Shown here in pieces: positions 1 to 55,691 of a stretch of DNA of 64,000 nucleotides. Source of the DNA: a virus (Duplodnaviria > Caudoviricetes); the IMG/VR virus record IMGVR_UViG_3300043406_000028, positions 12,042-76,041 of that record, one strand, 5' to 3'. Position 1 is the stretch's first letter. Each line of letters begins with the position of its first letter. Position numbers and translations under genes: made by a program. The notes beneath the pieces are model-generated. The model was not told the DNA's origin, did no database searches, and was given only the letters and a program-made list of their open reading frames with translations.

Positions 1-1
1 A

Positions 2-157
2 TTAGATGCGACGGCGCTCACGTTCGAGCATGAGTTCCCACATTGCTTCGCCATCAGGCTCTGCCTGATAAGCCGCTAGTATCTCGTCATCGGTCATAGA
101 CTGATACTCGGGACGAACCACAGTGATAGCCTCGTACAGAGCTTGCATGTCGATCAT
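2..157 (-). CDS. small hypothetical protein (51 aa, MIDMQALYEA...)
   Basis: Hand-translated ORF below the track cutoff, co-oriented with 224..613. Confidence 0.55.
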   Translation of the reverse strand: MIDMQALYEAITVVRPEYQSMTDDEILAAYQAEPDGEAMWELMLERERRRI

Positions 158-184
158 GTGCGCCTCTCAAGTTAAGATGATGAT

Positions 185-210
185 GGGCCAGGAGCTTTCG
201 CTCCCAGCCC
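185..210 (-). other. 11-bp hairpin with GAAA tetraloop between two minus-strand genes
   Basis: Minus strand GGGCTGGGAGC-GAAA-GCTCCTGGCCC (two G-U pairs). There is no U-tract, so a terminator role is uncertain. Confidence 0.5.
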
Positions 211-223
211 GGTTTAGTGTAGC

Positions 224-613
224 TTATGCAATGGCTTGGACAACAGGTTGTCCAGTGATTAGTGAGATCGGCATATCAGGAGCAACTTGACCCGAATGGA
301 ACAGAGTTCCAACACCCTTAACGAAGATACCATGCTGGCCCTTAACGACACGTTGGCCCTTCAGCAACCAGCCCTTATAGGTAAGGGCATCAACCCTCGG
401 AACCACAATGAATCCGGCCTTCTTGAAGGCTTTGGCGACTTTCACATCGTTGGTGATCTGACGGTCACTGAGGCCGTCTTGATGCTTGGGAGTGAACTTG
501 TTTGCAGGCTTGTAGGACGACTGCGGCTTGTGCTTGGCCTTACCCTTCGGGGCATTTAATGCGGCAATGACTGCGGCAGTAATCATGGCGATTTGGGCTT
601 GATTGACGGTCAT
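224..613 (-). CDS. hypothetical basic protein
   Basis: 129-aa ORF with GGAG SD upstream of the ATG. Confidence 0.75.
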   Translation of the reverse strand: MTVNQAQIAMITAAVIAALNAPKGKAKHKPQSSYKPANKFTPKHQDGLSDRQITNDVKVAKAFKKAGFIVVPRVDALTYKGWLLKGQRVVKGQHGIFVKGVGTLFHSGQVAPDMPISLITGQPVVQAIA

Positions 614-637
614 TGGTCGCTCCGTTCGGTTGCCGAG

Positions 638-966
638 CTTGTCTCTCTGAGTAAGCTCTCAAAGCGAAGCTAAGCGGAACGAAGTGAAGCGAAGAGCTTA
701 CGAAGAGAGCAAGTAAGGTGAGTGGCAGATTAGATGTGTGTGTGTTATCAATAGCTTGGCCCTTAGATGCCACAGTCTTTAGACTGTGAATCCTTCTGAC
801 CTACCCTGCCAAGCCTCGCATCTTCATCATTGATGATAGACTAGATGCGCGACCATTGACTCAGCGATGACCGCTGATGCGTTCTAGCCTCTTAGGCTAG
901 GGTAGCATGGACTGCTATGGTCTAGCTCACCAGTGCTTGTCCTAAGAGGACAATTCCCCAAGGGGA
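638..966. repeat. palindrome/inverted-repeat cluster in the divergent intergenic region
   Basis: GTAAGCTCT 651-659 / AGAGCTTAC 693-701; CACAGTCT-TT-AGACTGTG 771-788; CTAGCCT-CTT-AGGCTAG 884-900; TTGTCCT-AAG-AGGACAA 937-953; TCCCC-AA-GGGGA near 955-966. Confidence 0.8.
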
Positions 967-1054
967 GCCGTACTAGGGGGTAGGGGGCGCGTATTGAGGG
1001 CGGGCGTGTGTGCTTTTTTATCTGCGTCCACAGACATTACAAACAAAAAATCCA

Positions 1055-1106
1055 TTGACTTGTAGTATCTACATTGTAGTATCTACAGATAGATGTAGGA
1101 GCTACA
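1055..1106 (+). promoter_or_regulatory. sigma70-like promoter overlapped by three TGTAG-N3-CTACA operators
   Basis: TTGACT at 1055-1060 and TAGTAT at 1077-1082 (16-bp spacer). Palindromes at 1061-1073, 1075-1087 and 1094-1106; the last covers the AGGAG SD. Confidence 0.7.
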
Positions 1107-1400
1107 ATGAATCTCTGTGAGAAGTGTGGGAAGAACATGGATATTCATGGAAGAGTACATCACTGTGTACCTCAGACCAGAACTCACGATAAGGACATCC
1201 AGGGGGTCATTGAAATAGACCACAGCTATAAGCATCTGGTCTCACCTACTGAGGTCCCACCTACCCCCAAGCAAAAATTACTAGAAAAAAAGAAGGAGGT
1301 AATGGCTCGGTTGGGACATCACGATTGTCCAGTATGTGAGGCGAGGCGCAAGCTCAAGGCTCTCCAGATGAGACGCTACCGGGAGAAGAAGAATGCTTAG
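1107..1400 (+). CDS. small Cys/His-containing protein with basic C-terminus
   Basis: CxxC...HxC and HxCxxC motifs, RRYREKK tail, AGGAG SD. Confidence 0.7.
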   Translation: MNLCEKCGKNMDIHGRVHHCVPQTRTHDKDIQGVIEIDHSYKHLVSPTEVPPTPKQKLLEKKKEVMARLGHHDCPVCEARRKLKALQMRRYREKKNA

Positions 1401-1668
1401 GATTCCTAGAGACCTGTTGGATGCCGCTATCCAGGCCGTCCAGAAATGTTGCGCTAATGCAACAGATGTAAGTGGCCATCGTGTAGTGTTTACCGTGACG
1501 GATAAAGGGATTGAACACATGATCTGCGGCGGCCTTTCCATTGTGGCTCCTAATGGAGGGCCGGTAACTCCAGAGGATATTTTCTATGTGGTCGGCTTCG
1601 GAGGTAAAGATTTTCAGTCATTCCCTAAAAATAGGGTCCCATCCCACGGAGATAAGACGGGACCCTGA
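1393..1668 (+). CDS. hypothetical protein
   Basis: 91-aa ORF overlapping the previous stop. Confidence 0.65.
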   Translation: MLRIPRDLLDAAIQAVQKCCANATDVSGHRVVFTVTDKGIEHMICGGLSIVAPNGGPVTPEDIFYVVGFGGKDFQSFPKNRVPSHGDKTGP

Positions 1669-1728
1669 GTTTGTGTTTCGGGAGGAAACAGAGGGATTAT
1701 GTTTGATTTTTTGTGAAAGATCAACAGT

Positions 1729-1893
1729 CTAGCGTGGTGTTATCCTTCTCATTTCCGGAACTTCCTTGTCCCGCTCGGCCTTCCAGCACTTCTGGCATAG
1801 TTCGTGATCGGCCTTGCCTTGCTTGACGCCCTTAAAGCCCTTGCACTTGAACACCACGATCTTGCGTCCGCATTCACAGTACCTGCGGGCCAT
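1729..1893 (-). CDS. small Zn-finger-like protein (MARRYCECGRK...LCQKCW)
   Basis: Hand-translated 54 aa with GGAGG SD, CxC and CxxC motifs. Confidence 0.6.
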   Translation of the reverse strand: MARRYCECGRKIVVFKCKGFKGVKQGKADHELCQKCWKAERDKEVPEMRRITPR

Positions 1894-1902
1894 CTGCCCC
1901 TC

Positions 1903-2346
1903 CTATGAACAGCCTATTCCCTTAGTTCCTTTCTTACCGTCAGTGAAGACCTTCCAGTGCCTCCAGCCCTTTGGGCAATGGAACCCCCACTCCCTAACTA
2001 TAGGGCCTGTGATGAATAGGCTCCAGCACGGCTGATCAATCTCAATCCTATGAGCCGTCTTGGCCCTGCGGAACTTAAGATTCCCTGCCTTGTACCGGAT
2101 AGCCGTGGTTACCCCACCAGCCAGGATCGAGTACTCGATGTACTCTCCGTCCAGAAGATACGAAACATTCAGCCATGGATGGTCGTGGAGGGCCTCGTCA
2201 TCGTCCGAGCGCAGGAATCGATGGAGATAGATATTGAAGAGCGGGTTGCGTGGAATAACCCACCACCGTTGCATGTATGGGTTTTCTCTCCCGCCGACCA
2301 CAAAATCAGGTTCTCTGCTTTGGGAGATCTTCTCAAACCATCTCAT
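1903..2346 (-). CDS. cupin-like phage protein
   Basis: LHRF...LHDHPW...E...HRI metal-binding cupin pattern; ATGA overlap with the upstream gene. Confidence 0.65.
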   Translation of the reverse strand: MRWFEKISQSREPDFVVGGRENPYMQRWWVIPRNPLFNIYLHRFLRSDDDEALHDHPWLNVSYLLDGEYIEYSILAGGVTTAIRYKAGNLKFRRAKTAHRIEIDQPCWSLFITGPIVREWGFHCPKGWRHWKVFTDGKKGTKGIGCS

Positions 2347-3341
2347 CGCAGCGGGTCCCCCCTTCGATAATCCTGCCCAGCTTTTCTGCCAATCAAATTA
2401 GGCAAAAGCTTGCAGGGCAGGCCATAGCCTGGACGGATCGAGCCTATGTTCTTCTCGGAAAAGTTCTCGCCCTTTTTGATATCCGCTATGGCGTAGAGGC
2501 TACGCCTGATCTGCTTGGTCGGATTGCCATCCTGCTTGGTATGCTGCATCGCAGCGTAGGTCTTCTTCACGTCCACCACCATCTCGGCAAATTCCTCGAC
2601 GCTCATACTGAAGGCATCATCCTCGGACTTGACCCCAGGAAGGTGGCCGAAATGCTTCTCGATAATACAGGCTCCTAACGCCGTAGCAGCAATAGGAGCC
2701 AGACTTCCCTCAGAATGATCCGAAAGCCCCGCCACATTCGAGGGTAGCAGGTCCATAAGGTGGACGATTCCGCCAAGGTTCGACGTTTCAATAGTCCCTG
2801 GATATTCCGACATACAGTGTAGGAATGCGGCCTTTGGTGCCACGGCATGAGCATCGAGAATCTCCTGGTCGTTGGCCATTCCAGTCGAGATGATCATCGG
2901 CTTGCCGGTCGATGCCGCATACTCGATCAGCGGGATATCCACGATTTCCATGGATGCGATCTTGTAGGCCGGACAATCCAGCTTCTCCAGGAAGTCCACG
3001 GCAGTCTTGTCGAAGACGGAACTGAACACCGTGATCTTTTCGTCCCTGGCGACCTTGTACAAATCCGGATGCCAACTGAACGGCGTGTGCGCGGTCTTGT
3101 ACAGTTCCCACAAGGTGCGCCCCTTCCACAACCCGTCCTGGACGATGAAATCAGGCTTGTTCATCTCCATCGTGATCGTATGTGCTTCATAGCACTGGGT
3201 CTTAACCGCCGAGGCATTGGCTGCCTTGGCAAGCTTGATCAGCTTTTTGGCATTCTCCAGCTTGCCGCCGTGATTGCATGAAATTTCGGCTATGCAATAC
3301 GGAGAATTCTTCGGCCCGATCTTGATCCCCTCGATCTGCAC
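2343..3341 (-). CDS. pseI: NeuB/PseI-family nonulosonic acid synthase with C-terminal SAF domain
   Basis: IAEISCNHGG, KIASME, IISTGMA, LHCMSEYP, GLSDHS, IIEKHF, RRSLYA...IRPGYGL motifs. Confidence 0.92.
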   Translation of the reverse strand: MQIEGIKIGPKNSPYCIAEISCNHGGKLENAKKLIKLAKAANASAVKTQCYEAHTITMEMNKPDFIVQDGLWKGRTLWELYKTAHTPFSWHPDLYKVARDEKITVFSSVFDKTAVDFLEKLDCPAYKIASMEIVDIPLIEYAASTGKPMIISTGMANDQEILDAHAVAPKAAFLHCMSEYPGTIETSNLGGIVHLMDLLPSNVAGLSDHSEGSLAPIAATALGACIIEKHFGHLPGVKSEDDAFSMSVEEFAEMVVDVKKTYAAMQHTKQDGNPTKQIRRSLYAIADIKKGENFSEKNIGSIRPGYGLPCKLLPNLIGRKAGQDYRRGDPLR

Positions 3342-3599
3342 TCAATCCTCCTTCAGGGCTTTGTCGATTAAAGATTCCCACACCTTAGCAAGCTCTACGG
3401 CTGCCAGTGGTTCGTAGCCCAGCATCTCTGGTGTGGGCTCCCGCATTGCCTTGATGCAGGCCCGCGCGATCATCTTGACCCGACCTTGATCAAGGAAGTC
3501 CAATTCGTCATAGGCGGGAGCCCCCGCTGGCTGGTTCTCGCTCCAGATCGCCTTGGCGACCTTTTCTACCATCGTTGGGTCAACTGTGATTTCTGTCAT
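3342..3599 (-). CDS. small phage hypothetical protein inside the sugar operon
   Basis: VEKVAKAIW...ARACIKAMREPTPEM pattern typical of small phage proteins; coupled to both neighbours. Confidence 0.7.
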   Translation of the reverse strand: MTEITVDPTMVEKVAKAIWSENQPAGAPAYDELDFLDQGRVKMIARACIKAMREPTPEMLGYEPLAAVELAKVWESLIDKALKED

Positions 3600-4711
3600 T
3601 GCAAACTGTCTCCTACGACTTGAAAAATCTTTCGCATCACCCTTCGCTGCCTGCTTGTCGGCGAATAAGAACAGACATCGAAGGTCATCAGTTCCTTGTC
3701 CTCAAGATTCTCCGCTATCGGATGAACATCCGGGACATCGAAGACCCTATGCAACGGAGGTGAATACCCCTCACGCATCGGAATTCCGAGGTTAACCAGT
3801 CTGGATACAAAGGTATCCCGTGGCCATACCCCAACCTTGGCAGCCCAGATGTAATAGACATGCTTGCAGTCGTGTCTTTCCACAGGAGGCTTAATCTGTG
3901 GGAAGTCCTTGACCATATCGGTCATCTCAAGCGCCAGTTCGCGCCTGCCCTCCACAATCCATGGCCCCTTGCTCAATTGGGCGACGGCCAGGGCAGCAAT
4001 CGGCTCTGTCATGCGGAGGTTAAGCCCCATGATTCCGGGCCTCAGTTCCCCGTGGTTTACGGCATCCTTGATCTTGAGGGCGAGGTCAGAGTCGTTGGTA
4101 ACGACGACGCCTCCCTCGCCTGTCTGGATATGCTTATGAATATTAAGACTGAATACGCCAATGTCGCCGATAGTACCGCTATAAGCATCACGGGCCTTGG
4201 CGAAAGGCGCTTGGGCATTGTCCTCGATCATCCATACTTTGTTGATCCGGCACCACGAACGAATCTCCTGGAGGTATGCAGGATGCCCGAACAGGTTAGT
4301 GACGATGACAGCCTTCGGCTTCTTACCTCCTGGGAGGTTGAGCATGTTGATCGAAAAGGTTTTTGGCTCAACATCTATGAAACGTACCTCTGCGCCAAGC
4401 ACCTTTGCACATGCCGCCGTCGCGCTCATGGTGTAGGTTGGAGCCCACACAAGATCTCCAGGTCCGATTCCGACCGCAAGGCAGGCAGCCAGCAATCCTG
4501 ATGTACCCGAGTTGCAGGGAACGGCATGCTGACAACGGAAGGTTGACTTCCATTCATCAGATAGGCGCTCGACCCAATAACCACCGCGATGGTCACCGCC
4601 GAGGTAAGCACTAAAAGGGCGAGCGAGGGTAGAGAGTACATATCGGCGTTCCAAGTAATTCCTGGTTTCGAACGGAGGTAGAACTCCAAGCTTACGTCTC
4701 AATTGGTGCAT
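3596..4711 (-). CDS. DegT/DnrJ/EryC1/StrS PLP sugar aminotransferase (PseC-like)
   Basis: CNSGTSGL, IEDNAQA, VFSLNIHKHIQTGEGG, GLNLRMTE motifs. Confidence 0.92.
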   Translation of the reverse strand: MHQLRRKLGVLPPFETRNYLERRYVLSTLARPFSAYLGGDHRGGYWVERLSDEWKSTFRCQHAVPCNSGTSGLLAACLAVGIGPGDLVWAPTYTMSATAACAKVLGAEVRFIDVEPKTFSINMLNLPGGKKPKAVIVTNLFGHPAYLQEIRSWCRINKVWMIEDNAQAPFAKARDAYSGTIGDIGVFSLNIHKHIQTGEGGVVVTNDSDLALKIKDAVNHGELRPGIMGLNLRMTEPIAALAVAQLSKGPWIVEGRRELALEMTDMVKDFPQIKPPVERHDCKHVYYIWAAKVGVWPRDTFVSRLVNLGIPMREGYSPPLHRVFDVPDVHPIAENLEDKELMTFDVCSYSPTSRQRRVMRKIFQVVGDSLQ

Positions 4712-5571
4712 TTATAGTTCTCGCACATGGCCTTGATATCGCTCTCCAGGCTGGGGAGCCCTAGGCCGAATGCATGGTCGGCCCTGGTGATATCCATTCT
4801 GGTATCAAGGGGACGAATCACTCTCTGGGCTTGATCCGCCGCCGCGACAGGGCGAATCCCTTGGGCGCTCAGACCCATTCCATCTGCCAGCAGCATGGCA
4901 AACTTGGCCTTCGACATGGCGGTGGACGCACCGAGATTGAAGGTTCCGACCTTGTTGGTCTTAGCCATCTTCACCAGACAATCGGCTAAGGTCTTGGTCC
5001 ATAGCGGATTGAAGAACGAATCGGTGAAGGCGTTGAAGATATCTCCGCTCTTCATCTTGGTTAGAAAAAAATCAACTAGACTACTCTTCCTCGCAGACAA
5101 AGCCTTGCCATAGAGATTGGTCCTGACAATCAGATGATTCGTGGCCTTGGCTGCCGCAAACTCACCCATGAACTTGCTCATCCCATACATATTGATGGGA
5201 TTCTCACTTCGAGAATGCTCCTTGTGAGGCCCGTATCCGGAATAGACCATATCGGTCGATATGTAGATAAAACGGCATTCCTTCGACATATGAGTGACAA
5301 GATTCTCTGTCATCCCCGCATTGGCAATCACAGCCTTGTGCGGATGGAGTCCGCATTCATCCACGTTGGTCATGGCTGCTGCGTGGACGATGATTCCAGG
5401 TGTGTAGTTTTCTATGACGAATTTGGCGTTTCGCTCATCCGTCAGGTCGCAGACCTTAGTGGATATCCCATGCACTTCTCCAAGCTTGGAGAATGCCGTC
5501 ATCAGGTATGGACCCAGGAGACCTGTGGCCCCGGTAATAAGGATACGCATTACTTCAACCGCCTCATCCAC
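4699..5571 (-). CDS. RmlD-like NAD(P)-dependent SDR reductase
   Basis: ILITGATGLLG, HAAAMTNVD, YISTDMVY, YGMSK (YxxxK). Confidence 0.88.
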   Translation of the reverse strand: MDEAVEVMRILITGATGLLGPYLMTAFSKLGEVHGISTKVCDLTDERNAKFVIENYTPGIIVHAAAMTNVDECGLHPHKAVIANAGMTENLVTHMSKECRFIYISTDMVYSGYGPHKEHSRSENPINMYGMSKFMGEFAAAKATNHLIVRTNLYGKALSARKSSLVDFFLTKMKSGDIFNAFTDSFFNPLWTKTLADCLVKMAKTNKVGTFNLGASTAMSKAKFAMLLADGMGLSAQGIRPVAAADQAQRVIRPLDTRMDITRADHAFGLGLPSLESDIKAMCENYKCTN

Positions 5572-5789
5572 TTGGTTACGTTGCGATCATTCTCTGTGAT
5601 GGCAGCCATGATCTTCTTGGCTTGCCTAGGCCGCGCCTTGAATGCCAAGGCCAATAACTGCATCCAGCAGTTGTTATTTTTGCGGCGGATTCTTGTTACT
5701 TCTTTGACGACCAACCCATTGGTGATCTTGCGGTGAACGTACTTACGCTTCTTCATACGAGATCCTTTAATTGTTCGACGGTGAGCCAC
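5550..5789 (-). CDS. small basic hypothetical protein (probable start MKKRKY near 5756)
   Basis: K/R-rich ORF bridging pseB and the RmlD-like gene. Confidence 0.6.
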   Translation of the reverse strand: MAHRRTIKGSRMKKRKYVHRKITNGLVVKEVTRIRRKNNNCWMQLLALAFKARPRQAKKIMAAITENDRNVTKWMRRLK

Positions 5790-6724
5790 TGGGAGTTGGA
5801 GTCGCTGGAGTACCTCCAGCCGGACATGACCAGTGTTTCGTATTGTCTCTTGATGTATCCGGATGGATTGATGCAGTAATAGGTCTCGCCCTTGAGGCCG
5901 ATTCCCATCGTTGTTGTCACACTCTCATCTTCGGTGATCAGAGTTTCGTGGAGCTTCTCTCCGGGGCGGATTCCTGTGTTGAATTCCACAGTTCCTCCAT
6001 CATTGCCATGAACAGCATGAGCAAGATCAATGATTCTGATCGATGGGATCTTCGGGACCAGAATCTTCGAATGAAACCCCTCATCGGATATCTCCAGCGC
6101 GTTCATGACCAGATCGATGCTCTGATCCAGAGTGATCCAGAATCGCGTCATCCTTTCGTCTGTTACTTTGAGCGTCTTGCCTTCCGCCTTGAGTTTCTGG
6201 AAGAGCGGAAGAACAGAGCCGCGAGAACCAGAGACATTACCGTAGCGAACGACATTGAACCGGCATTTCCCCGCAGCCATTGCGTTAGCTGCAATAAAAA
6301 TCTTCTCCGCCGCGAGTTTCGATGCGCCGTATAGATTGATCGGATTAACCGCCTTATCTGTCGATAGTGCAACGACTCGTGAAACTGAAGTGCGTAACGC
6401 CGCTCGGATAACATTTTCGGCACCCGTGACATTTGTTGCTATGCACTCCGTTGGATTGTATTCTGCCGTTGGAACGATCTTCAGAGCCGCCGCATGGATA
6501 ACAGTGTCCACGCCACGCATGGCCATCTCAAGCCGACCCAGATCACGCACATCTCCGATGAAGAAGCGTAGTCGATCATCATTGAACTTTCGCTCCATCT
6601 CTTCTTGAAGATGCTCGCCACGGGAATAGATGGCGATACGCTCAATCTTATGGTTATTGAGGATGTGCCGGGTAAAGGCTTGGCCGAAGGAGCCAGAGCC
6701 GCCTGTGACGAGAATGGATTTCAT
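5753..6724 (-). CDS. pseB: UDP-N-acetylglucosamine 4,6-dehydratase (inverting), PseB
   Basis: LVTGGSGSFG, HAAALKIVP, ALSTDKAVNPINLYGASK, RYGNVSGSRGSV, GIRPGEKLHE. Confidence 0.93.
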   Translation of the reverse strand: MKSILVTGGSGSFGQAFTRHILNNHKIERIAIYSRGEHLQEEMERKFNDDRLRFFIGDVRDLGRLEMAMRGVDTVIHAAALKIVPTAEYNPTECIATNVTGAENVIRAALRTSVSRVVALSTDKAVNPINLYGASKLAAEKIFIAANAMAAGKCRFNVVRYGNVSGSRGSVLPLFQKLKAEGKTLKVTDERMTRFWITLDQSIDLVMNALEISDEGFHSKILVPKIPSIRIIDLAHAVHGNDGGTVEFNTGIRPGEKLHETLITEDESVTTTMGIGLKGETYYCINPSGYIKRQYETLVMSGWRYSSDSNSQWLTVEQLKDLV

Positions 6725-8727
6725 GCTGACTTTCGCAGTGCCTGACCCTGGATATGTCCCTTGAGATATTGCTTAATCTGCCCATGCGCGGACGCCTCGT
6801 CGATCAGATCGAGGGTATGTTTGTAAGCCTTCAGGATTCGCTGAATCTCTGGTTCTTTCATGGCATAGGATACGCAGTTGGCATTGAGGCACAGGACCCC
6901 TTGTTGGGCCATTTCCTGGATGAACAGTGCCTGAATATCCGAATCCTTGAATTTGATCTTCACAAGCGGCGAGATTCCGCTGAAGTCCATCGACTTTCCA
7001 GAGCGATGCGATATGGCCGACCTGATCTTGATCCCAGTATCGTGCAGATGACGGATGACACCCTCCCGCTCCATCTTCTTGATGGTTGCCAGGGCCGCAG
7101 CGATGGACAGCGTGTCGCCGAAGAACGTGCCGGAGAAGAACACGCCACTCTTGCCGTCCATCATCTTCATGATGTCGCGCTTGCCGACCAGGGCAGAGAT
7201 TGGCATTCCATTGCCCATCGACTTGCCGAAGCAGGCCAGATCAGGTGTGACACCAAAATACTCTTGCCCTCCGCCGAGCGCATAGCGGAAGCCGGTCTGA
7301 ATCTCGTCAAAGATCAGAATTACCCCGTTCTGGGAACACCAGAGTCTTAAAGCCCTGAGGTATTCAGGATCATGCGTCGGCTCTACGATGACCGCAGCAA
7401 TCCCGCCATTCAGAAACTGCCGACAGGATTCAATATCCTTCATATCTCCGTAACTGATGACCTGTGACACTCGCTTCACGCCATCAGGGATTCCAGCGTT
7501 TTTCCCTTCCAGCCAAGCGGCTGACCAATCCGCCCATCCGTGGTATCCTCCGACCAATACATGGTCCTGACCCGTGTAAGCCCTGGCAAGCCGAACTGCG
7601 GCGCTTGTCACATCGGTTCCTGACTTGCCGAATTGGACCATTTCCGCGCACGGGATTAGTTCACAGAGCTTCTCGGCCAGTTGACACTCAAGCTTGGTAG
7701 CCAAGCTGAAGCTCATTCCGGAATTTAACTGTCTCCGGACAGCCTCATCTACGTCAGGATCGCGGTATCCTAGGACGACAGGCAGGAGTGCGCTAACCAG
7801 ATCAACGTAATCGTTGCCATCGACATCAAATATCCGAGCGCCATCCCCATGAGAAACATAAAGCGGAGCGCCTCCCGCTGGGTACCATAGGTGCGATTTA
7901 GAAAATGTCTGTGACCCAAGTGGTATTGACTTGGTTGATCGCGCCAGTAGGGCGTCTGATCTGGTATATGTTCGTGGGGGTAATCGCTCTTCTGCGATTC
8001 CTTCGTAAAACCGTTCATTTCGAATGGCTCCGGCATTGATCCCCCTCAGGGCTGGATTCAGATCAAGGATTCGCATGATCTCGGTAGACGAAGGCGGCTT
8101 GCCCATAGGGACGCGCCGCGCAATCTCCTTGCACAATTCGTAGTCCTTCTGCGTATCCAGCACCCAGCGCTCCTTATGAGCCCCAGGAAACGGGCAAATC
8201 AGGTACTCGGCAGGGAAGCGATCCTGGTTACGGATGATCCATTGTGTCACACAGTCCCGATCAGAGGGTCTGGTGGCCTCTTTCCACGCCGCTTCGAGTG
8301 CTTCGAAGGTGAAGCACTCAACATCCAGGCCGTCAGGCCACGTTGGCTGGTTGGAGCAATAGGAGGAATTGGTCATCTCCATAAGCTGGATGACCTGCCC
8401 CACCACATTCGGATCAATAAACGGACAATCGCAGGTGATACGCAGGATCACATCGGCATTACGCTTGATGGCGCACTGATAGAACCGATCCAGCACATCG
8501 GATTCCGAGCCACGCGATACATCGACATTGTTCTCTACGCACCACTTAGCGATTACGTCATCCGCAGTCAGCGTAGAGGTGGCAATGCAGACCTGATCGA
8601 CGCCTGGAGACTCACGCAAAGCTCGAACCACCCACCCAAGGACCGGCATCTTCTCCAGCGGAGCCATAACCTTGCCAGGAAATCTCGTGCTGCCCATGCG
8701 GGCCTGGGCAATAGCTAAAGTTTTCAT
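6721..8727 (-). CDS. SpsF/PseF-like cytidylyltransferase fused to a class III (GSA-like) aminotransferase
   Basis: N-terminus QARMGSTRFPGKV...RITCDCPFID; C-terminus DEIQTGFR...DLACFGKSMGNG (PLP lysine). Confidence 0.9.
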   Translation of the reverse strand: MKTLAIAQARMGSTRFPGKVMAPLEKMPVLGWVVRALRESPGVDQVCIATSTLTADDVIAKWCVENNVDVSRGSESDVLDRFYQCAIKRNADVILRITCDCPFIDPNVVGQVIQLMEMTNSSYCSNQPTWPDGLDVECFTFEALEAAWKEATRPSDRDCVTQWIIRNQDRFPAEYLICPFPGAHKERWVLDTQKDYELCKEIARRVPMGKPPSSTEIMRILDLNPALRGINAGAIRNERFYEGIAEERLPPRTYTRSDALLARSTKSIPLGSQTFSKSHLWYPAGGAPLYVSHGDGARIFDVDGNDYVDLVSALLPVVLGYRDPDVDEAVRRQLNSGMSFSLATKLECQLAEKLCELIPCAEMVQFGKSGTDVTSAAVRLARAYTGQDHVLVGGYHGWADWSAAWLEGKNAGIPDGVKRVSQVISYGDMKDIESCRQFLNGGIAAVIVEPTHDPEYLRALRLWCSQNGVILIFDEIQTGFRYALGGGQEYFGVTPDLACFGKSMGNGMPISALVGKRDIMKMMDGKSGVFFSGTFFGDTLSIAAALATIKKMEREGVIRHLHDTGIKIRSAISHRSGKSMDFSGISPLVKIKFKDSDIQALFIQEMAQQGVLCLNANCVSYAMKEPEIQRILKAYKHTLDLIDEASAHGQIKQYLKGHIQGQALRKSA

Positions 8728-9620
8728 GTGAGTCCGGCCTGTTTACGAACCTCAAGACAGATTTTGAGAACCTCAAGACCTTCTTCGCCGCTGCATCCGA
8801 TTGTTTCCTTCCCATCGATTCTGCTGATGAACGCTTCCATCTCTTCGATGTAGTCCTCGTCGTAGGAACCGCTGAGGCGCTCCCAGCATCTTATGTCCCC
8901 AGCATTCTCATTTGGGACTAGGGCGATGTGTCTATCAGGTAGACTGCAATGGATGGATGCTTTCGACCCATGGATCGTGAATCTGCGCTGCTCTGGCTTG
9001 GTGATGTAATCCAGATGAACCGTAGACCGGCACCCACTCTCATGCGTGAGAAGGATATTGGTCATATCGTCTTTGCCATCAGTCAATCTTGTGGAAGAAC
9101 CCGCAACTTTCGCAGAGCCCAACAAATAAAGGGCAAGATCAATCTCGTGGCTCCAATTCAATATGCAACCGTCACGTAGATACGGAGGTTTTTCGCTATA
9201 CTGTCCGAGGGTAAAATTGGCCCAGATTGGCTTGCCGATGAGCCCGGCGTCCAGCCACTCCTTGGCTTTCTTGACGCAGCTATGGAATCGGAGGTTGTAG
9301 CCGACTGTCAGCGCATTCTTCGGATATGGCAATCCGCTATGGATCATCTTATCCGCTATCGGCTTTTCCACTAAGCATGGCTTTCCAGCCACCCATACTC
9401 GCCCAAGATGCTCGAAGTGATTTGGTGTTGGGCTAGCGATAACAATCGCCTCTGCATCCATAACATCGTCAATATTTTCTACGATGCGGCCTAGCGGTGC
9501 TGCTAACCATCGTCGCTCGTTGTCTGGATCATAGCCAATAATTTGATGTCCCATGGTGTGCAGATTCTTGGCATGCCTCATGCCGATACTGCCAAGTCCA
9601 ATGATTCCGATTGTTTTCAT
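8724..9620 (-). CDS. Gfo/Idh/MocA oxidoreductase
   Basis: IGIIGLGSIG, EKP motif, GYNLRFH. Confidence 0.9.
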   Translation of the reverse strand: MKTIGIIGLGSIGMRHAKNLHTMGHQIIGYDPDNERRWLAAPLGRIVENIDDVMDAEAIVIASPTPNHFEHLGRVWVAGKPCLVEKPIADKMIHSGLPYPKNALTVGYNLRFHSCVKKAKEWLDAGLIGKPIWANFTLGQYSEKPPYLRDGCILNWSHEIDLALYLLGSAKVAGSSTRLTDGKDDMTNILLTHESGCRSTVHLDYITKPEQRRFTIHGSKASIHCSLPDRHIALVPNENAGDIRCWERLSGSYDEDYIEEMEAFISRIDGKETIGCSGEEGLEVLKICLEVRKQAGLT

Positions 9621-10213
9621 TTTGCTGGGAATGCGTTCTTGGTGTCTTTTTGCAGGATAGTAACGCTGGTCTCACCCTGAACCGTTCTTCCGCATAGAGA
9701 GTATGTGGGATGAGCAAGCCATAGCTTCGAGAAGTCAAAATGATGGGAGAACAGACCAGCCTTGTGCTTGTAGGGGACCTTGAAGGTGTGGTCTGGATAG
9801 AAGTCATAGACAACGAGATGACCTCCATCTCTCAGGATTCTGTCGCCCTCTAGTGCGATTTTGAAGTAATCATCTGGGTCGCAGAGATACAGGCACCAGC
9901 CGTAAATCAGCATATCGAACTGTTCGTCGGAATACTGGAGACGATCAGCAGTTCCGGCCCAGACCTGAACCCTGGATGATCCACGCTTGCTGCCGTAGGC
10001 GGGGTCATAGCCCTCGACATGGCATCCCCACATACGCTGCATAACCTCAAGCCGGGCACCATCGGCACAGCCGACTTCCAGAACACGATCTGGAATGAGC
10101 TTATACTTGTCGATAGCTTCTAGGACTGGATCGCTGTTCTCGTCATAGCGGCCAGCATTCCGAGCCATCCAGGCTTCGCCTTCTCCGTGAAGAAAGGTCA
10201 GAGATTGTTTCAT
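9617..10213 (-). CDS. class I SAM-dependent methyltransferase
   Basis: VLEVGCADG motif I; resembles methylases found in pseudaminate clusters. Confidence 0.85.
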   Translation of the reverse strand: MKQSLTFLHGEGEAWMARNAGRYDENSDPVLEAIDKYKLIPDRVLEVGCADGARLEVMQRMWGCHVEGYDPAYGSKRGSSRVQVWAGTADRLQYSDEQFDMLIYGWCLYLCDPDDYFKIALEGDRILRDGGHLVVYDFYPDHTFKVPYKHKAGLFSHHFDFSKLWLAHPTYSLCGRTVQGETSVTILQKDTKNAFPAK

Positions 10214-10722
10214 CGCTGACCAAGGCTCCCATACAGGTGCATGCTGACTGGCTTCCCTTTCACCAGGAAATGATCCTGGACAATGGCCTCATGTCTCATC
10301 CCGTATTTGGTGCAGATTCTGATCATCGGGGCATTCAGGGACATGCAGCCAGCTTCGATCTTTCTGATCGACTTTTCGATGAACAGATAATTACAGACGC
10401 ACTCCCAAGCCTCAAAGCCGTAGCCTTTGCCCCATTGGGTCTTATCCCCAATCATGATTCCGACATTGGCGACATTGTTGGGCTGGTCTATGCGGACGGC
10501 TACAGACCCGATTGGCACTGTCGGTGAATAGATGCTGTAGACGAAGTTTGGTGCAGCGGTGGCTGCTGAGAGCCAGTAATCTCCCTGTGATTCCTCAGTG
10601 TGAGTTTTATGACGTTGCTCAGAATATTTAACGACTTCCGGATCATTCAGCCAACAAGCAAATAGACCAGCTTCATCCATATCTGGCGGCTCCATCAGAA
10701 GCCTTGGAGTTGCAAGAATCAC
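10210..10722 (-). CDS. GNAT/RimJ-type N-acetyltransferase (PseH-like)
   Basis: WLNDPEV...VGIMIGDKTQWGKGYG...N.PMI...KYG; GTG start. Confidence 0.85.
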   Translation of the reverse strand: MILATPRLLMEPPDMDEAGLFACWLNDPEVVKYSEQRHKTHTEESQGDYWLSAATAAPNFVYSIYSPTVPIGSVAVRIDQPNNVANVGIMIGDKTQWGKGYGFEAWECVCNYLFIEKSIRKIEAGCMSLNAPMIRICTKYGMRHEAIVQDHFLVKGKPVSMHLYGSLGQR

Positions 10723-10886
10723 TTCTTCCTCGGCATCTGATCTTTGAGGTGCTGGATAATGGCCAGCATCGTTTCTGACAGCATCAGAACTCCAGCCGCC
10801 TCGACTGAATAGCCGCCCAGCTTTCGCCGCTTGACCACTTCCTCCATCACCCGAGCCTCAAGCTCGATCATGTCGTCTCTGTGCAT
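10719..10886 (-). CDS. small hypothetical protein leading the sugar operon (MHRDDMIELE..., 55 aa)
   Basis: Hand-translated; AGGAG SD upstream; stop overlaps the GNAT GTG. Confidence 0.65.
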   Translation of the reverse strand: MHRDDMIELEARVMEEVVKRRKLGGYSVEAAGVLMLSETMLAIIQHLKDQMPRKK

Positions 10887-10982
10887 GTATTTCTCCTGTT
10901 GGTTTTAGGTAGCCCAAATTGGGCTTCGTTGCCCAGTTCGTATGTAGGAACTATAGTTTGATATCCACAGGCATCTAAATTC

Positions 10983-12647
10983 ATGAATTTCGCCAACAAG
11001 ATCGCCAAGGCTGGCATGCAGATCGCCAAGCTGAAGGAGCGCGAAATCTATGAAGGAGCCCTGATTGACTTTGCAGAATACGTCTGGCCCGTGGTTGAGC
11101 CCGCTATTCCATTCGTCAGAGGTTGGGCCATCGAAGCAATTGCCGAGCATCTTCAGGCAGTTACGGACGGTCAGATCAAGCGCCTTCTGATGAACGTCCC
11201 GCCCGGATTCACCAAATCCCTGATGACCGATGTGTTCTGGCCAGCCTACGAATGGGGTCCCAGGAACATGCCCTGGCTGCGGTATGTCTGCGCCTCCTAC
11301 TCCAACCACCTGACCGAGCGCGACAACATGCGCTGCCGCAACATCGTGATCTCGGATCGCTATCAAAAGATGTGGGGCTCCCGGTTCAAGATCTCGAACG
11401 AGCAGTTCACCAAGATCAAGTTCGCCAACGACCATACTGGGTGGAAATTGGCTACCTCCGTGGGAGGCATCGGCGTCGGAGAGCGCGGTGACAGGTTCAT
11501 TATCGACGACCCCAACAACACCATGGACATGGAGTCCGAGCAGGTCCGGGATACTACGAATCTGTGGTTTACCGAGGTCGTGCCCGACCGTCTTAACAAC
11601 CCACAGGATAGTGCTATCGTTATTATCCAGCAGAGGTTGCATGAAGACGATGTGAGCGGAGTCGCTCTCTCCAGAGAGATGGGATACACGCACTTGATGA
11701 TCCCGATGGAGCATGATGTTTCAAGGCATTGTGTGACCGTTTTGGGGCTAGACAGTGACGGAAATAAGAAAGTATGGGAAGACCCCAGGAAAGAGGATGG
11801 GGAACTGGCGTGGCCTAATCGGTTCACCCAGAAGGTCTGCGATGACCTGAAGCGGGATAAAGGCCCTCATGCATGGGCTGGGCAATACATGCAGAGCCCG
11901 GAGCCAAGGGGCGGTTCCATCATCAAGCGCGATTTCTGGCAGCTATGGGAGCAGCCTAAGTTCCCTCAGTTCGAGTATATCCTGGCTTCGGTCGATACCG
12001 CCTACACCGATAAAGAGGAAAACGATCCTAGTGCTTTGACAATCTGGGGTGTTTTCCGGGACGAATCCTCCCTTAGAACGACTGATTCCGACATCCTTTG
12101 GATGCCTCGCGATGGGCAGGCGCTACAATCCATCAAGGGAAATCCCAAGATTATGCTGATGTACGCTTGGCAGGAGCGGCTCCAATTCCACGAACTGCTT
12201 GAGAAGATTATGGATACCTGCGGGGCGGGGTCAAAAACCAAGCTGGGGGCCAAATTCCCAGTGGATCGGGTGCTTATCGAAGCCAAGGCTAGCGGCCAGT
12301 CGGTAGGCCAGGAAATGCACCGCATGCTACGCGGGACCGGGAAATTCGGGGTGGAGCTAAACCCGGTCGAAGGGGACAAGTACGCCCGGCTCCAATCCGT
12401 CCAGCACCTGTTCTCCGAGGGCATGATCTATGCTCCCGACAGGGCCTTTGCAGATATGGTGATCGACCAGTGCGCCGTGTTCCCCAAGGGCTCCCGAGAC
12501 GACTTGGTGGATACCACCTCGCAGGCACTGCGATACTTGAGAGATCAGGGCTTTGCGTTGAGGCGCGAAGAATACATCGTAGAAGAACGGGAAGAGATGA
12601 TGTATAAGGGCGCATCCTACAATGCGCCGCTTTACGGTAACTTCTGA
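10983..12647 (+). CDS. terL: terminase large subunit
   Basis: Walker A variant NVPPGFTKS, Walker B FIIDDP, nuclease SVDTAY, IEAKASG, DDLVD. Confidence 0.95.
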   Translation: MNFANKIAKAGMQIAKLKEREIYEGALIDFAEYVWPVVEPAIPFVRGWAIEAIAEHLQAVTDGQIKRLLMNVPPGFTKSLMTDVFWPAYEWGPRNMPWLRYVCASYSNHLTERDNMRCRNIVISDRYQKMWGSRFKISNEQFTKIKFANDHTGWKLATSVGGIGVGERGDRFIIDDPNNTMDMESEQVRDTTNLWFTEVVPDRLNNPQDSAIVIIQQRLHEDDVSGVALSREMGYTHLMIPMEHDVSRHCVTVLGLDSDGNKKVWEDPRKEDGELAWPNRFTQKVCDDLKRDKGPHAWAGQYMQSPEPRGGSIIKRDFWQLWEQPKFPQFEYILASVDTAYTDKEENDPSALTIWGVFRDESSLRTTDSDILWMPRDGQALQSIKGNPKIMLMYAWQERLQFHELLEKIMDTCGAGSKTKLGAKFPVDRVLIEAKASGQSVGQEMHRMLRGTGKFGVELNPVEGDKYARLQSVQHLFSEGMIYAPDRAFADMVIDQCAVFPKGSRDDLVDTTSQALRYLRDQGFALRREEYIVEEREEMMYKGASYNAPLYGNF

Positions 12648-15151
12648 TGGCCCCACGCTCTAAAGCTAAGAGGTTAGACAACCCTTATCCTGAGGTTGTG
12701 CCGCCTGCTTTGACTTTGGTGAAGAGCGATAGCGACGAGATGGGGGCTGATTCCGTCTCATTCGAGGATGGGACTCTAAGGGTCGAGCATCCGGACGGAT
12801 CGGTGACAATCGATTTGTCTCCGCCGGGAGACCAAGACGATCCCCCTGATGGCGATGAATTTGATCGTAACCTTGCTCTCAGCATGTCCGACGATGATCT
12901 TGGATCGATTTCAACGGACCTGATCGAAGGAATCGACCGGGATAACGAGTCCCGCAAGAAGTGGCTGGATACCAGAGCCCTTGGCATCGGTCTTCTTGGC
13001 CTTGAGCTTGAGAAGCCGAGGGCCGGGGCCGGGACAGAATCCGCACCCATCGAGGGCATGTCTACCGTTCGCCACCCGCTTCTATTGGAAGCCACTGTTT
13101 CCTTCCAGGCGACGGCTCGGGCCGAGCTTCTGCCTGCGTCCGGGCCGGTCAAGGTTCGCAACGATACGCCGACCCCGCCAAAAGAGATTGTCCAGGAAAC
13201 CTCTGCCCAGCCTCAATTGCTGGAGAGCATGCAATCCAACGATGAGCTTTCCCAGGCCCTGGAGAAGGACCTCAACCACTATCTGACAGCCGTTGCGACC
13301 GAATATGTTCCAGATACGGATCGTATGCTGTTCTACATTGGCTTCGGCGGAGACGGGTTCAAGAAGGTTTACAACTGCCCACTTCGCCGCAGGCCAGTCT
13401 CGGAATCGATTGATGCCGAGGATTTGATCATCTCGAATACCGCGACCGATCTCTGCAACTCTGGCCGCGTTACACACCGCATCAAGATGCGCCAATCGAC
13501 GCTGAAGCGCATGCAGATTCTGGGTGTCTACCGCGATGTGGAATTAAGCCCGCCGACCATCAGCAATCCAACCGCAGTTGACAAGAAACTTGAGGCTATC
13601 TCCGGTGTTACGGAAAGCAACAAGCTTCCTGAGGATCGTGATTTCGAAGTCTATGAGACCTACTGCGAACTCGATATCGACAAGTACGCCCCTGACCAAT
13701 TCAAGGGTAAGGGATTACCGCTGCCTTATCGCGTGACCATCGAGAAGGAATCAAAGAAGATTCTCGATATCCGCCGGAATTGGAAAGAAGAAGATGAGCA
13801 ATGTCTTGCCAAGCAATTCTTCGTCCAGTTTCCGTTTATCAGAGGTTTGGGCTTCTACGGGCTTGGATTCATACATCTGCTCGGCAATACAACCAACGCC
13901 CTTACCGCCGGATGGCGTGAAGCCCTGGATGCCGGGATGTTCGCCAACTTCCCTGGATTTATCTACGCTAAGGGCGCTGGGCGTCAGCTAACCAACCAAA
14001 TCCGTATTCCGCCTGGAGGCGGCTATGGCCTTGATATCGGCGCTGGACAGCGAATCCAGGACGCCATCATGGGAGTTCCATACAAGGAAGCTGGCGCTGG
14101 TTTCATCAACCTCCTTGGTAAGATTGAAGAGGGTGGGCGTCGCCTTGCGTCCACCGCAGAAGTCAGTGTCGGAGAGGGTAAGCAAGATGCTCCTGTGGGA
14201 ACCACCCTCGCCCTTATTGAGCAGGCATCGAAGGTCATGGATTCGGCGCATAAGCGCCTGCATGCCGCCCAGGCTGAGGAATTCAAGTTATTGAAGTGTC
14301 GTTTCCAGGAAGACCCTGAGTCCTTCTGGCGTCATAACAAGAAGCCTACCATTAAGTGGAAGAAGGACCAGTTCCTCGCGGCTTTGGACAACTGCGAGCT
14401 TGTCCCGGTAGCAGACCCTAACAACCCGACCAGCCTGCATCGCTTGGCGAAGGGTGCGATCATCAAGCAGCTTCAGACAGCAAACCCGGCTCTCTACGAT
14501 GCAGTAGCTGTCGATATGCGGGTGATGAGAATCTCCGATATCGACCCTGCTGGCCTGATGCGTCCGACGCCCGCCCCTGCTCCGCCTGATCCACGCATGG
14601 TTGCGATCCAGAAGAAGGCCGAAGCTCAAGAATTGATGAGCAAGATCCAGCTTATGGAAACCCAGATCAGGGCAGCAACTGCCGGTGCTCAGATCCAGGA
14701 CAAGGCCAAGGATCGTGAATCTCGTGAACGCATCGAGCAGATGAAGATCAGGCTTCAGCAGCTTGATCTTGAACAGTCTCAGATTCAGCACAAGGCCGAT
14801 GAAGAAAAGATCTATGCTCGCATGATGCACGAGCTAAACACCAAAGCACAGTTGGCGGCCCACGGTGCCCAGGTCGAGGCTGTCGAGGCTCAGCACGGCC
14901 TGCACCTGGATGCCGCTGAGACGGCCCATGGACTTCAGGTCGATAAGGCCAAGACCGATCACGAACTCCGCACCAATGCGGAGCGCACCGAGCATGAGAA
15001 GGAAATGGCAAGAGAGCGCCATAACGCCGAAATGACTCGCGCCCACGAGAAGCACCAACTAGACATGCAGCATGCTAAAGAACTTCATGCTCATAAGCTT
15101 GAGGCAGCCAAACAGATGGCTCGCGCCAAGCCTAAGAAAGCAAAGGAATAA
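12647..15151 (+). CDS. portal protein with long coiled-coil, His-rich C-terminal extension
   Basis: Follows terL; HPLLLEA...FQA, GFYGLG, GTTLALIEQ and HKRLH portal motifs. Confidence 0.9.
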   Translation: MAPRSKAKRLDNPYPEVVPPALTLVKSDSDEMGADSVSFEDGTLRVEHPDGSVTIDLSPPGDQDDPPDGDEFDRNLALSMSDDDLGSISTDLIEGIDRDNESRKKWLDTRALGIGLLGLELEKPRAGAGTESAPIEGMSTVRHPLLLEATVSFQATARAELLPASGPVKVRNDTPTPPKEIVQETSAQPQLLESMQSNDELSQALEKDLNHYLTAVATEYVPDTDRMLFYIGFGGDGFKKVYNCPLRRRPVSESIDAEDLIISNTATDLCNSGRVTHRIKMRQSTLKRMQILGVYRDVELSPPTISNPTAVDKKLEAISGVTESNKLPEDRDFEVYETYCELDIDKYAPDQFKGKGLPLPYRVTIEKESKKILDIRRNWKEEDEQCLAKQFFVQFPFIRGLGFYGLGFIHLLGNTTNALTAGWREALDAGMFANFPGFIYAKGAGRQLTNQIRIPPGGGYGLDIGAGQRIQDAIMGVPYKEAGAGFINLLGKIEEGGRRLASTAEVSVGEGKQDAPVGTTLALIEQASKVMDSAHKRLHAAQAEEFKLLKCRFQEDPESFWRHNKKPTIKWKKDQFLAALDNCELVPVADPNNPTSLHRLAKGAIIKQLQTANPALYDAVAVDMRVMRISDIDPAGLMRPTPAPAPPDPRMVAIQKKAEAQELMSKIQLMETQIRAATAGAQIQDKAKDRESRERIEQMKIRLQQLDLEQSQIQHKADEEKIYARMMHELNTKAQLAAHGAQVEAVEAQHGLHLDAAETAHGLQVDKAKTDHELRTNAERTEHEKEMARERHNAEMTRAHEKHQLDMQHAKELHAHKLEAAKQMARAKPKKAKE

Positions 15152-49636: not shown

Positions 49637-50364
49637 ATCTCTTCCGTGAAAGTGGATTCCACGCCGTTAGGGAGCTTGCCATGCAGTTTACGGTAGGCTC
49701 TAGCACCTTTGATGATTGCCTCATCGATATCCTTGGTATGGCCAAGGTCCTCGATGGCTGTCACAACGTCCGTAACGGTTAGCGTTTCTTTCTTCTTGAG
49801 CCCAATCGCCCGCGAGAACCCGCCGCCGATCCTGACACGAGTTTCTCTCTCCGCGAGTAACGCCGCTCTCTGTGCTTTTTCAAAGTCTCGGAAGGCATTG
49901 TCGGCCTCAACCACATGAGCCGCGATGTCAACTCCAAGCTCTCCACTGCTATTTGATCCAAGAGCTTCTTGTTCAAGCCGCTCGGCCTCTCTAGCTTTTC
50001 GTTCAGCGTCTTCAGCGATTCGAGCAGCTTCTCTAGCTGCTTCTTCTCTCTTTCGCTTTTCCTCTTTAAGGAATTCAGATACTCTTTCCCCCAGAGCATC
50101 GAGAGTTCTCGTGAGCGTCTCCTTTGCAGGGCGGTAGTAGTCATTGATTTCTTTGACCCTTTCATTAAGCGGTCTAACCTTGGAGTCGCGCTCGTCGTCA
50201 AGATCCTTGAGGGCCAACTTACCTCTATCGACATAGACCTTTGCCTCCTTGGCGGTATCTTCGGTTATGACGACATTCTCGGAGAGCCATGCGGAAATGT
50301 CCCGCATGGTCTCTCCGGCAGTATCCACCATTGACGGCGGCGCGTTATGGCCGATTCCAGCCAT
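49633..50364 (-). CDS. coiled-coil protein (recombination-associated, uncertain)
   Basis: MAGIGHN start; KPLNERVKEINDYY pattern. Confidence 0.6.
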   Translation of the reverse strand: MAGIGHNAPPSMVDTAGETMRDISAWLSENVVITEDTAKEAKVYVDRGKLALKDLDDERDSKVRPLNERVKEINDYYRPAKETLTRTLDALGERVSEFLKEEKRKREEAAREAARIAEDAERKAREAERLEQEALGSNSSGELGVDIAAHVVEADNAFRDFEKAQRAALLAERETRVRIGGGFSRAIGLKKKETLTVTDVVTAIEDLGHTKDIDEAIIKGARAYRKLHGKLPNGVESTFTEEI

Positions 50365-55612: not shown

Positions 55613-55616
55613 GTAT

Positions 55617-55687: not shown

Positions 55688-55691
55688 GTAT

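Follow-up and report, generated by a model that had tools for sequence, protein, structure and literature searches.

Why should a bacterial virus carry, beside its large terminase gene, an operon of eight sugar enzymes that resembles a pathway for pseudaminic acid, and does that operon belong to the phage or to a host from which it was caught in passing? The question is raised by a 64-kb stretch of DNA, called the window below, which corresponds to bases 12042-76041 of one IMG/VR virus record of 76,041 bp (IMGVR_UViG_3300043406_000028; Duplodnaviria, Caudoviricetes). The record has direct terminal repeats and a completeness rating of 100%, and profiles of tyrosine and serine recombinases (integrase, resolvase) found no match in the genome; it is therefore not a prophage with host flanks. 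Comparison with related loci, to which handles such as L154 refer, showed that the operon is an ancestral, inherited part of a phage lineage that is kept under purifying selection, with synonymous sites saturated. Taken as a whole, the best explanation, which we regard as quite probable, is an inherited and selected operon of pseudaminic type that probably serves glycosylation of the virion.

An operon inherited within a phage lineage

The operon consists of 12 gapless open reading frames (ORFs), all on the minus strand, that run from 10886 down to 1903 over about 9 kb and comprise eight enzymes and four small ORFs. Overlaps of 4 bp were observed at six ATGA junctions and one GTGA junction. 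With the likelier internal starts, the junction between the dehydratase gene PseB and the small ORF behind it reads ATGA and that between the small ORF and an RmlD-like gene reads TAATG, while the synthase gene PseI starts where the stop of the small orf85 ends, and the DegT aminotransferase and RmlD-like genes overlap by 13 bp. On its other side, exactly 96 bp separate the operon from the divergent large terminase gene terL (10983-12647, plus strand), which opens the plus-strand structural block. An earlier reading of the sequence without database searches (the sequence-only reading) had described eight co-oriented sugar-enzyme ORFs with 4-bp overlaps of ATGA type that diverge from terL across about 96 bp, and each of these features was recovered. 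It had also placed an ORF at 1903 but begun the operon at 2343; the operon and this ORF are real, but the unit runs past 2343 to 1903, perhaps to 1729, and the ORF matches the phage protein family phrog_4786.

A search of IMG/VR with the TerL protein gave 58 loci. All relatives with a TerL at least 63% identical (63-86%) and with enough upstream DNA carry the operon at this position and in this orientation (L002/L016, L003, L004, L006-L010 and L012), so that presence among close relatives is not patchy and only single tailoring genes vary. Ten viral loci with a TerL at most 48% identical and at least 8 kb of DNA upstream of terL hold zero operon genes. The layout of portal, terL and divergent operon was repeated in independent NCBI, ENA, JGI and Logan assemblies (L145, L146, L147, L153, L154 and the TARA ocean scaffold L152), to which PseI or PseB homologues with 51-89% identity had led. 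GenBank phages gave no megablast match to the operon or to the terL-portal region, and relatives were found by protein-level searches only. The lineage thus assembled consists of uncultured phages with genomes of roughly 62-77 kb and a portal of SU10 type.

Across these relatives the conserved core comprises a GNAT acetyltransferase, a Gfo-type oxidoreductase, a fusion of cytidylyltransferase and aminotransferase, the PseB-type dehydratase, the DegT protein and PseI. Around it, L145 and L146 lack the methyltransferase, L006, L012 and L147 have a further methyltransferase gene, and a formyltransferase gene is present in L009 and L152. PseB itself occurs in the lineage as two alleles, one of 323 residues that passes its family cut-off and one of about 280 residues that is 43-47% identical to it (window 5753-6724 versus L154:6639-7493), and phages that are otherwise close have exchanged the two. 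In addition, HNH homing-endonuclease genes were observed in relatives inside the operon and between terL and the portal gene (L154:5845-6642, L146:4346-4849, L146:250-756). The terL product of L154 (905 residues) has an intein_splicing match, and L150 encodes a 905-residue product with a LAGLIDADG match. In L152, a gene of 71 residues with a precomputed Acb2/Tad1-hairpin Pfam match (L152:7786-8001) lies inside the operon directly upstream of PseB.

The sequence-only reading had proposed phylogenies as a check for phage-only clades, and for PseI a clade was found whose checked members are all phage. For PseI (55-100% identity) as for PseB (58-100%), the best 120 homologues are all on contigs of at most 76 kb (at most 75 kb for PseB), many of phage-genome size, and the two PseB homologues at 58% that were checked both belong to the phage operon described here. 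A tree of 85 PseI sequences placed the window protein and 28 homologues in one clade with a support of 100 and a stem of 0.36. This clade takes in all sampled homologues of at least 55% identity, and every context checked was the phage layout. In a quick tree search, two phage PseI proteins from loci whose genes are ordered differently came to lie directly outside this clade. When all 31 PseI sequences of the phage lineage were constrained together, the likelihood was above that of the free tree (p-AU 0.945, AU standing for approximately unbiased), and a single origin of the phage PseI is therefore not rejected.

A bacterial source was looked for in two ways. In a library of 1.84 billion representatives, the identity of PseI matches falls from 56% to 51%, then to 49% and then to at most 47%; the match at 51% stands in a phage context and the one at 49% is the first in a bacterial context. 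The nearest cluster in a bacterial context (L148:6243-15659) has the canonical set PseB, PseC, a PseG::PseH fusion and PseI, followed by a Gfo-type oxidoreductase, a 356-residue protein, a cytidylyltransferase that stands alone, and a further DegT and GNAT. The additional amination steps of the phage may have their cellular counterpart in it. In parallel, a pattern scan with the alignment of the fusion protein covered 185,579 species of bacteria and archaea by their representative genomes; identity to the fusion was at most 38%, and all matches but one cover the aminotransferase half only. The exception is a Dehalococcoidia metagenome-assembled genome (L076) with the sole full-length bacterial homologue of the fusion (37%), in a cluster that has PseB, DegT, methyltransferase, Gfo-type, fusion and NeuB proteins at 27-47%, is only partly syntenic and lies beside a Wzt ABC transporter. 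The enzyme combination thus exists in cells, yet L076 is no donor. The same region (L076:5058-17616) also holds two methyltransferases, a CDP-alcohol phosphatidyltransferase and a radical SAM protein. In a phage-like contig of 33.8 kb with another layout, PseB-like, DegT, stand-alone CTP_transf_3, GNAT and NeuB proteins were found (L150:3033-7894; PseI 45%), and phage-borne nonulosonate pathways may therefore extend past one lineage.

The composition of the operon lies inside the genome's own spread. The GC content is 0.524 in the operon and 0.547 in the rest, and at third codon positions (GC3) it is 0.60 in both. The relative synonymous codon usage (RSCU) of the operon correlates with that of the rest of the genome at 0.859 against a null of 0.863 +/- 0.039, and its tetranucleotide correlation equals the median of all windows. 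The claim of the sequence-only reading that composition resembles the phage core therefore held in the codon and tetranucleotide comparison. Selection was estimated against L154, the closest relative (PseI 89%), for the operon genes with the exception of PseB and the methyltransferase. The proportion of synonymous differences (pS) is 0.60-0.77, that is, saturated, while that of nonsynonymous differences (pN) is 0.08-0.21, and the ratio of nonsynonymous to synonymous rates (dN/dS) is about 0.05-0.19 where it could be computed. Stated more broadly, pS is 0.6-0.8 and pN 0.08-0.27, for a dN/dS of about 0.05-0.2. In the same way, TerL compared with L016 gives a pS of 0.62, a pN of 0.084 and a dN/dS of 0.07.

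These results bear on the view that the operon is recently captured host DNA for O-antigen synthesis or flagellin glycosylation, or else a product of misassembly or contamination. Its enzymes do belong to bacterial families, and L076 offers a distant cluster with the same parts. Such a view has to face bacterial matches that do not exceed 38% for the fusion and 49% for PseI, a layout that recurs in independent IMG/VR, ENA, NCBI and Logan assemblies, a complete genome with direct terminal repeats, a phage-like composition and saturated synonymous sites between relatives, and it is hardly tenable. A near-identical, syntenic bacterial locus or an atypical composition, which the sequence-only reading had named as signs of recent capture, was not found. 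Its proposal of a long-resident, selected module is supported by synteny, the PseI clade, the bacterial scan, composition and a selection like that on TerL.

Enzymes of the operon and the predicted sugar

In the canonical pathway for CMP-pseudaminic acid, known from Campylobacter jejuni and Helicobacter pylori, six enzymes (PseB, PseC, PseH, PseG, PseI and PseF) act, and in the phage the positions of PseC, PseH and PseF are filled by the DegT, GNAT and CTP_transf_3 proteins. Only PseB and PseI pass the equivalog cut-offs of NCBIfam. PseB, the inverting UDP-N-acetylglucosamine (UDP-GlcNAc) 4,6-dehydratase (5753-6724), scores 421.1 bits with TIGR03589 (cut-off 407.75). PseI, the pseudaminic acid synthase of the NeuB family (2343-3341), scores 376.2 bits with TIGR03586 (cut-off 340.25) and stays under the cut-off of the NeuB equivalog.

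The candidate for the PseC-like step is a DegT/DnrJ/EryC1 sugar aminotransferase (3596-4711; Pfam DegT, 173 bits), whose gene is present in all relatives covering the position and which reaches 151 bits against a cut-off of 423.5 for the PseC equivalog TIGR03588, matching the broad DegT family only. The candidate for the PseH-like step is a GNAT N-acetyltransferase (10210-10722; Pfam Acetyltransf_3, 74 bits), with 21.8 bits against the 93.1 of TIGR03585; it is found in every operon-bearing contig covering the position, in L009 as a weak partial match. CMP activation falls to the fusion protein of 668 residues (6721-8727), which is full-length in all relatives and joins an N-terminal CTP_transf_3 cytidylyltransferase (90 bits) to a C-terminal class-III aminotransferase (Aminotran_3, 172 bits) similar to glutamate-1-semialdehyde (GSA) aminomutases. 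Its N-terminal 250 residues score 17.2 bits with the PseF equivalog TIGR03584 (cut-off 205.7). For its aminotransferase half, the matches in the PDB are led by GSA aminomutases, after which they include sugar C-6' aminotransferases such as 7lld and NeoN. PseG is another matter: TIGR03590 has no match at E <= 10 across the 76-kb genome, no NeuC-type epimerase/hydrolase was found in the genome, and among the genes called in relatives, none is listed with a domain of PseG type (Glyco_tran_28_C). The phage set thus differs from the canonical pathway in lacking PseG, in the fusion of the cytidylyltransferase to a class-III aminotransferase and in the addition of an oxidoreductase, a methyltransferase and an RmlD-like reductase.

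The three added enzymes are assigned to tailoring. The Gfo/Idh/MocA NAD-dependent oxidoreductase (8724-9620; N- and C-terminal GFO_IDH_MocA domains of Pfam) is present in all relatives covering the position and has inositol 2-dehydrogenases as its closest solved structures; we infer that it oxidises a sugar hydroxyl. The S-adenosylmethionine (SAM)-dependent methyltransferase (9617-10213) matches Pfam Methyltransf_11/25/23. The RmlD-like NAD(P)-dependent sugar reductase (4699-5571; Pfam RmlD_sub_bind, 166 bits) is under the rmlD cut-off (154 versus 224) and specific to a sub-lineage: among the contigs examined its gene was seen in the window, in L002/L016 and in L154 only. The Pfam profile begins at residue 8, and the true start of the gene is probably the ATG near 5550.

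Four small ORFs are interleaved with these genes, as the sequence-only reading had noted. The first gene of the operon, orf55 (10719-10886), encodes a small conserved protein with no Pfam or PHROG match; it overlaps the GNAT gene by GTGA and has homologues 31-51% identical at the same position in nine relatives (pN 0.11 and pS 0.70 against L154). The small ORF behind PseB extends over 5550-5756 (68 residues, with an ATG overlapping the PseB stop) or over 5550-5789 (79 residues, from an upstream GTG); it has weak homologues in L016, L007 and L009 and is 76% identical in L154 (pN 0.125, pS 0.765). Next to the DegT gene, which it overlaps by ATGA, orf85 (3342-3599) encodes a small conserved protein that is 60% identical in L016 and 74% in L154 (pN 0.19, pS 0.68 against L154). 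As pN is far below pS in all three ORFs shared with L154, they are real genes. Finally, orf147 (1903-2346), the last sizeable gene of the operon, overlaps PseI by ATGA and matches phrog_4786 at E 6e-57, a family annotated 'cysteine dioxygenase'. Its nearest Atlas clusters are mostly viral and hypothetical, it has no Pfam or NCBIfam match and no sequence relative in the PDB at E <= 1, and no homologue was found at any related locus, which places it outside the conserved core.

From these family memberships we infer that the operon makes a CMP-activated 5,7-diamino-nonulosonic acid of pseudaminic type. PseB would dehydrate and invert UDP-GlcNAc, the DegT enzyme would aminate C4, the GNAT protein would acetylate, PseI would join the hexose and phosphoenolpyruvate, and the CTP_transf_3 domain would add CMP. 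As PseG is absent, either the host or a protein not yet recognised would have to hydrolyse the UDP-sugar. The oxidoreductase and the fused class-III aminotransferase probably turn one hydroxyl of the nonulosonate into an amine, which would then be methylated or acylated, with the methyltransferase acting after amination, and the RmlD-like reductase may add a further step in the sub-lineage of the window. Since the tailoring genes differ among relatives, their variation suggests that the structure of the sugar is itself diversifying.

The failure of four of the six canonical steps in the equivalog tests leaves room for another product, for instance a different ulosonic or amino sugar that is not attached to protein and serves hypermodification of phage DNA; a variety of glycans is known to be used by phages in hypermodifying DNA (bioRxiv 10.1101/2023.12.21.572611). 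Against this stand PseB and PseI, both over curated cut-offs, and the proteins scanned, in a scan that was not exhaustive, included no DNA-modification genes. In addition, CMP-activated sugars and enzymes of the Maf/CstII fold serve transfer to protein or glycan acceptors, which also counts against such a product. It is accordingly considered very unlikely, and a protein-attached nonulosonate of pseudaminic type is preferred.

A candidate transferase among the virion genes

How the sugar might be used is suggested by a protein of 319 residues encoded in the virion module (24948-25907, plus strand). Its AlphaFold2 model, built from 56 sequences, has a predicted local distance difference test (pLDDT) score of 78, mostly 85-97 in the core, and replaced an earlier model from 4 sequences with a pLDDT of 57. 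The model predicts a fold like that of Maf and the sialyltransferase CstII, which makes the protein a candidate CMP-sugar transferase. When Foldseek was searched with it, the top 15 matches listed were sialyltransferases, mostly CstII/Cst-I, with CstII first at E 1e-5. VIA-align, which is independent of Foldseek and covered 48,161 chains, placed Maf (5mu5, Z 11.1) before Cst-I (2p56, Z 10.8) and then an MptE-like HPPK protein. The core (residues about 72-240) superposes on Maf 5mu5 with a root-mean-square deviation of 3.1 over 154 residues; it is preceded by a disordered N-terminal part and followed by a long helix at the C-terminus, and sequence identity to the fold matches lies at 12-18%. 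Models from Pfam, NCBIfam and PHROGs do not match the protein, and the MptE-like profile PF01973 finds nothing genome-wide.

The protein was found in 3 of 3 complete operon-bearing genomes and was absent from the 2 of 2 without the operon, and ten contig sizes recur in both the PseI and the 319-residue match lists. Profiles of glycosyltransferase families GT1 and GT2 found no match in the genome. The gene stands among plus-strand virion ORFs with 23-36% serine and threonine against a genome mean of 13%; such richness is common in structural proteins and is taken as a lead only. The 319-residue protein would transfer the CMP-sugar to a protein, most likely one of these Ser/Thr-rich virion proteins; as most structural proteins received no name from Pfam or PHROGs, no acceptor could be singled out. 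Because of the predicted fold, the co-occurrence with the operon, the lack of a GT1 or GT2 match and the location among Ser/Thr-rich virion ORFs, glycosylation of virion proteins would be the likeliest and most economical use of the operon.

The same inherited operon might instead remodel the host surface during infection, acting on flagellin, lipopolysaccharide, capsule or the S-layer, and so might block superinfection or free progeny from debris. There is a precedent in EpaA/EpaB of Acinetobacter prophages, which act on the host capsule (PMC12053666). Maf enzymes normally glycosylate flagellin, Maf 5mu5 is the closest structural match of the candidate transferase, and the absence of PseG would suit a host that already makes pseudaminic acid. 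Lysogenic conversion is made unlikely by the lack of an integrase or resolvase match, by the terminal repeats and by 22 tRNA genes, which ARAGORN placed in a single minus-strand array (55539-59151). Together with the completeness of the genome, these features indicate that the phage is probably virulent. Moreover, the gene for the candidate transferase is placed within the virion module on the plus strand, beside the Ser/Thr-rich ORFs, and no membrane-associated genes for glycan assembly or export were found among the proteins scanned. Remodelling of the host surface is therefore held to be unlikely, and decoration of the virion remains the preferred use.

Several observations weigh against the preferred reading of an inherited pseudaminic-type operon for virion glycosylation. 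The assignment of the transferase comes from fold only, with Foldseek TM-scores of 0.3-0.5 and no hidden Markov model family, and relatedness among the genomes confounds its co-occurrence with the operon. The encoded pathway is incomplete, as the absence of a PseG- or NeuC-type hydrolase genome-wide leaves the UDP-release step uncovered, and the exact product is not fixed by the DegT, GNAT and cytidylyltransferase proteins, which are below equivalog cut-offs. On the side of inheritance, the PseB of L154 is 47% identical to that of the window while its neighbours are 70-89% identical, and PseB and the methyltransferase were swapped between lineages; inheritance is therefore not strictly vertical gene by gene. 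A Mantel comparison of TerL with the operon genes gave r 0.58-0.70 (p about 0.01 or lower; Spearman 0.2-0.6), a correlation of divergence that rests mostly on the one close pair of the window and L016, and strict co-phylogeny of TerL and operon is not claimed. In its fullest form, the proposal would be that a widespread virulent lineage makes a diversifying pseudaminic-type sugar with an extra methylated or acylated amine and attaches it to the virion through an unrecognised family of the Maf/CstII fold. This combination of claims is put forward tentatively, as somewhat short of an even chance.

Genome setting, known systems and significance

Beyond the operon, the structural block that starts with terL (Pfam Terminase_6C; tblastn to annotated large terminases of GenBank phages) continues with an SU10-type portal gene (12647-15151, plus strand; Pfam SU10_portal, 55 bits), and a head protein, a virion structural protein and a tail-collar-domain protein are also encoded. 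The small terminase gene terS (Pfam Terminase_2) is at genome positions 10127-10723 (L001:10127-10723; window -1914 to -1318), about 12 kb from terL, and the gap is occupied by the sugar operon on the opposite strand and a few small genes. The operon likewise lies between terS and terL in L060, L145 and L154, and in the outgroup phages L033 and L054 terS abuts terL. Outside the structural block, a DUF6551/GmrSD_N-like protein, a DnaA C-terminal helix-turn-helix protein and an endonuclease VII were found (window 50364-51167 and 53440-54162; L001:9655-10107).

The flanks of the operon were searched for signals. On its 3' side there is a strong terminator-like hairpin with a 15-pair stem and a T run (1633-1666, minus strand), which also follows the stop of a plus-strand ORF (1393-1668). 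The 96-bp divergent region between orf55 and terL (10887-10982) contains the perfect palindrome GCCCAAATTGGGC at 10912-10924, which is partly kept in the closest relatives L016 and L003. With up to two mismatches it has 3 matches in the window against 3.5 expected and is not a repeated motif. The sequence-only reading had suggested that a shared divergent promoter region here may time the operon with late genes. Two back-to-back pairs of promoter hexamers were seen in the gap, each with a score of 9/12 that is no better than chance, and since a scan of 1-13000 for sigma-70 hexamers found 7 promoter-like sites where 11 were expected, these two carry no weight. Alignment of the regions 5' of terL among relatives was uninformative except for the closest pair.

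Of the published systems, the EpaAB module of temperate Acinetobacter baumannii prophages is the closest. Its two genes only epimerise C8 of host-made pseudaminic acid, and EpaA, a fusion of CTP_transf_3 and an aldo-keto reductase, works with a separate dehydrogenase (PMC12053666). Like this module, the present operon is phage-borne and has CTP_transf_3 fused to a tailoring domain and a partner dehydrogenase, here the adjacent Gfo/Idh/MocA gene. It differs in that the fused domain is an aminotransferase, that nearly the whole pathway is present including its own PseB and PseI, and that its carrier, which has no integrase or resolvase match, is probably virulent. The pairing of a dehydrogenase with a class-III aminotransferase recalls the GenB/NeoN systems of aminoglycoside C-6' amination, and KdnA/KdnB of Shewanella, which make Kdo8N, are another oxidation-transamination pair acting on a sugar. 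Unlike in such pairs, the dehydrogenase is here of the Gfo/Idh/MocA type and the aminotransferase is fused to a cytidylyltransferase. The 319-residue model shares with Maf and GT42 enzymes (CstII, Cst-I) the fold of their nucleotide-sugar-binding domain, a likeness known from the predicted fold and outside their family profiles, and unlike them it is encoded among virion genes.

Virion glycosylation has been described in mycobacteriophages, where phage-encoded enzymes attach glycans to proteins of the capsid and the tail (Freeman et al. 2023, summarised in PMC12619734). In the present lineage, by contrast, the biosynthesis of a rare nine-carbon acidic sugar would also be phage-encoded, and the decoration of the virion is a prediction. 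The mycobacteriophage glycosyltransferases reportedly draw on host sugar pools. No phage-encoded nonulosonate pathway and no nonulosonate on a phage particle was described in the full texts searched, and a large phylogeny of nonulosonate synthases from 2021 does not mention phages or viruses. No PHROG family matches the PseI of the window, and three records only in the GenBank phage collection match it.

Nonulosonic acids are usually treated as sugars of cellular surfaces. If the proposed use is true, the present lineage would be the first case of a bacterial virus 'sialylating' its own particle with a nonulosonate that it makes itself. It would also represent a route to virion glycosylation beyond the mycobacteriophages, and new enzymes for the tailoring of nonulosonates, as well as a new family of transferases, could be drawn from it. 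Such genes in viromes should accordingly be read with caution and not be taken for host contamination or transient auxiliary genes. That nearly a whole pathway has been kept over a long divergence while its tailoring was reshuffled points to a sugar that is central to the fitness of these phages.

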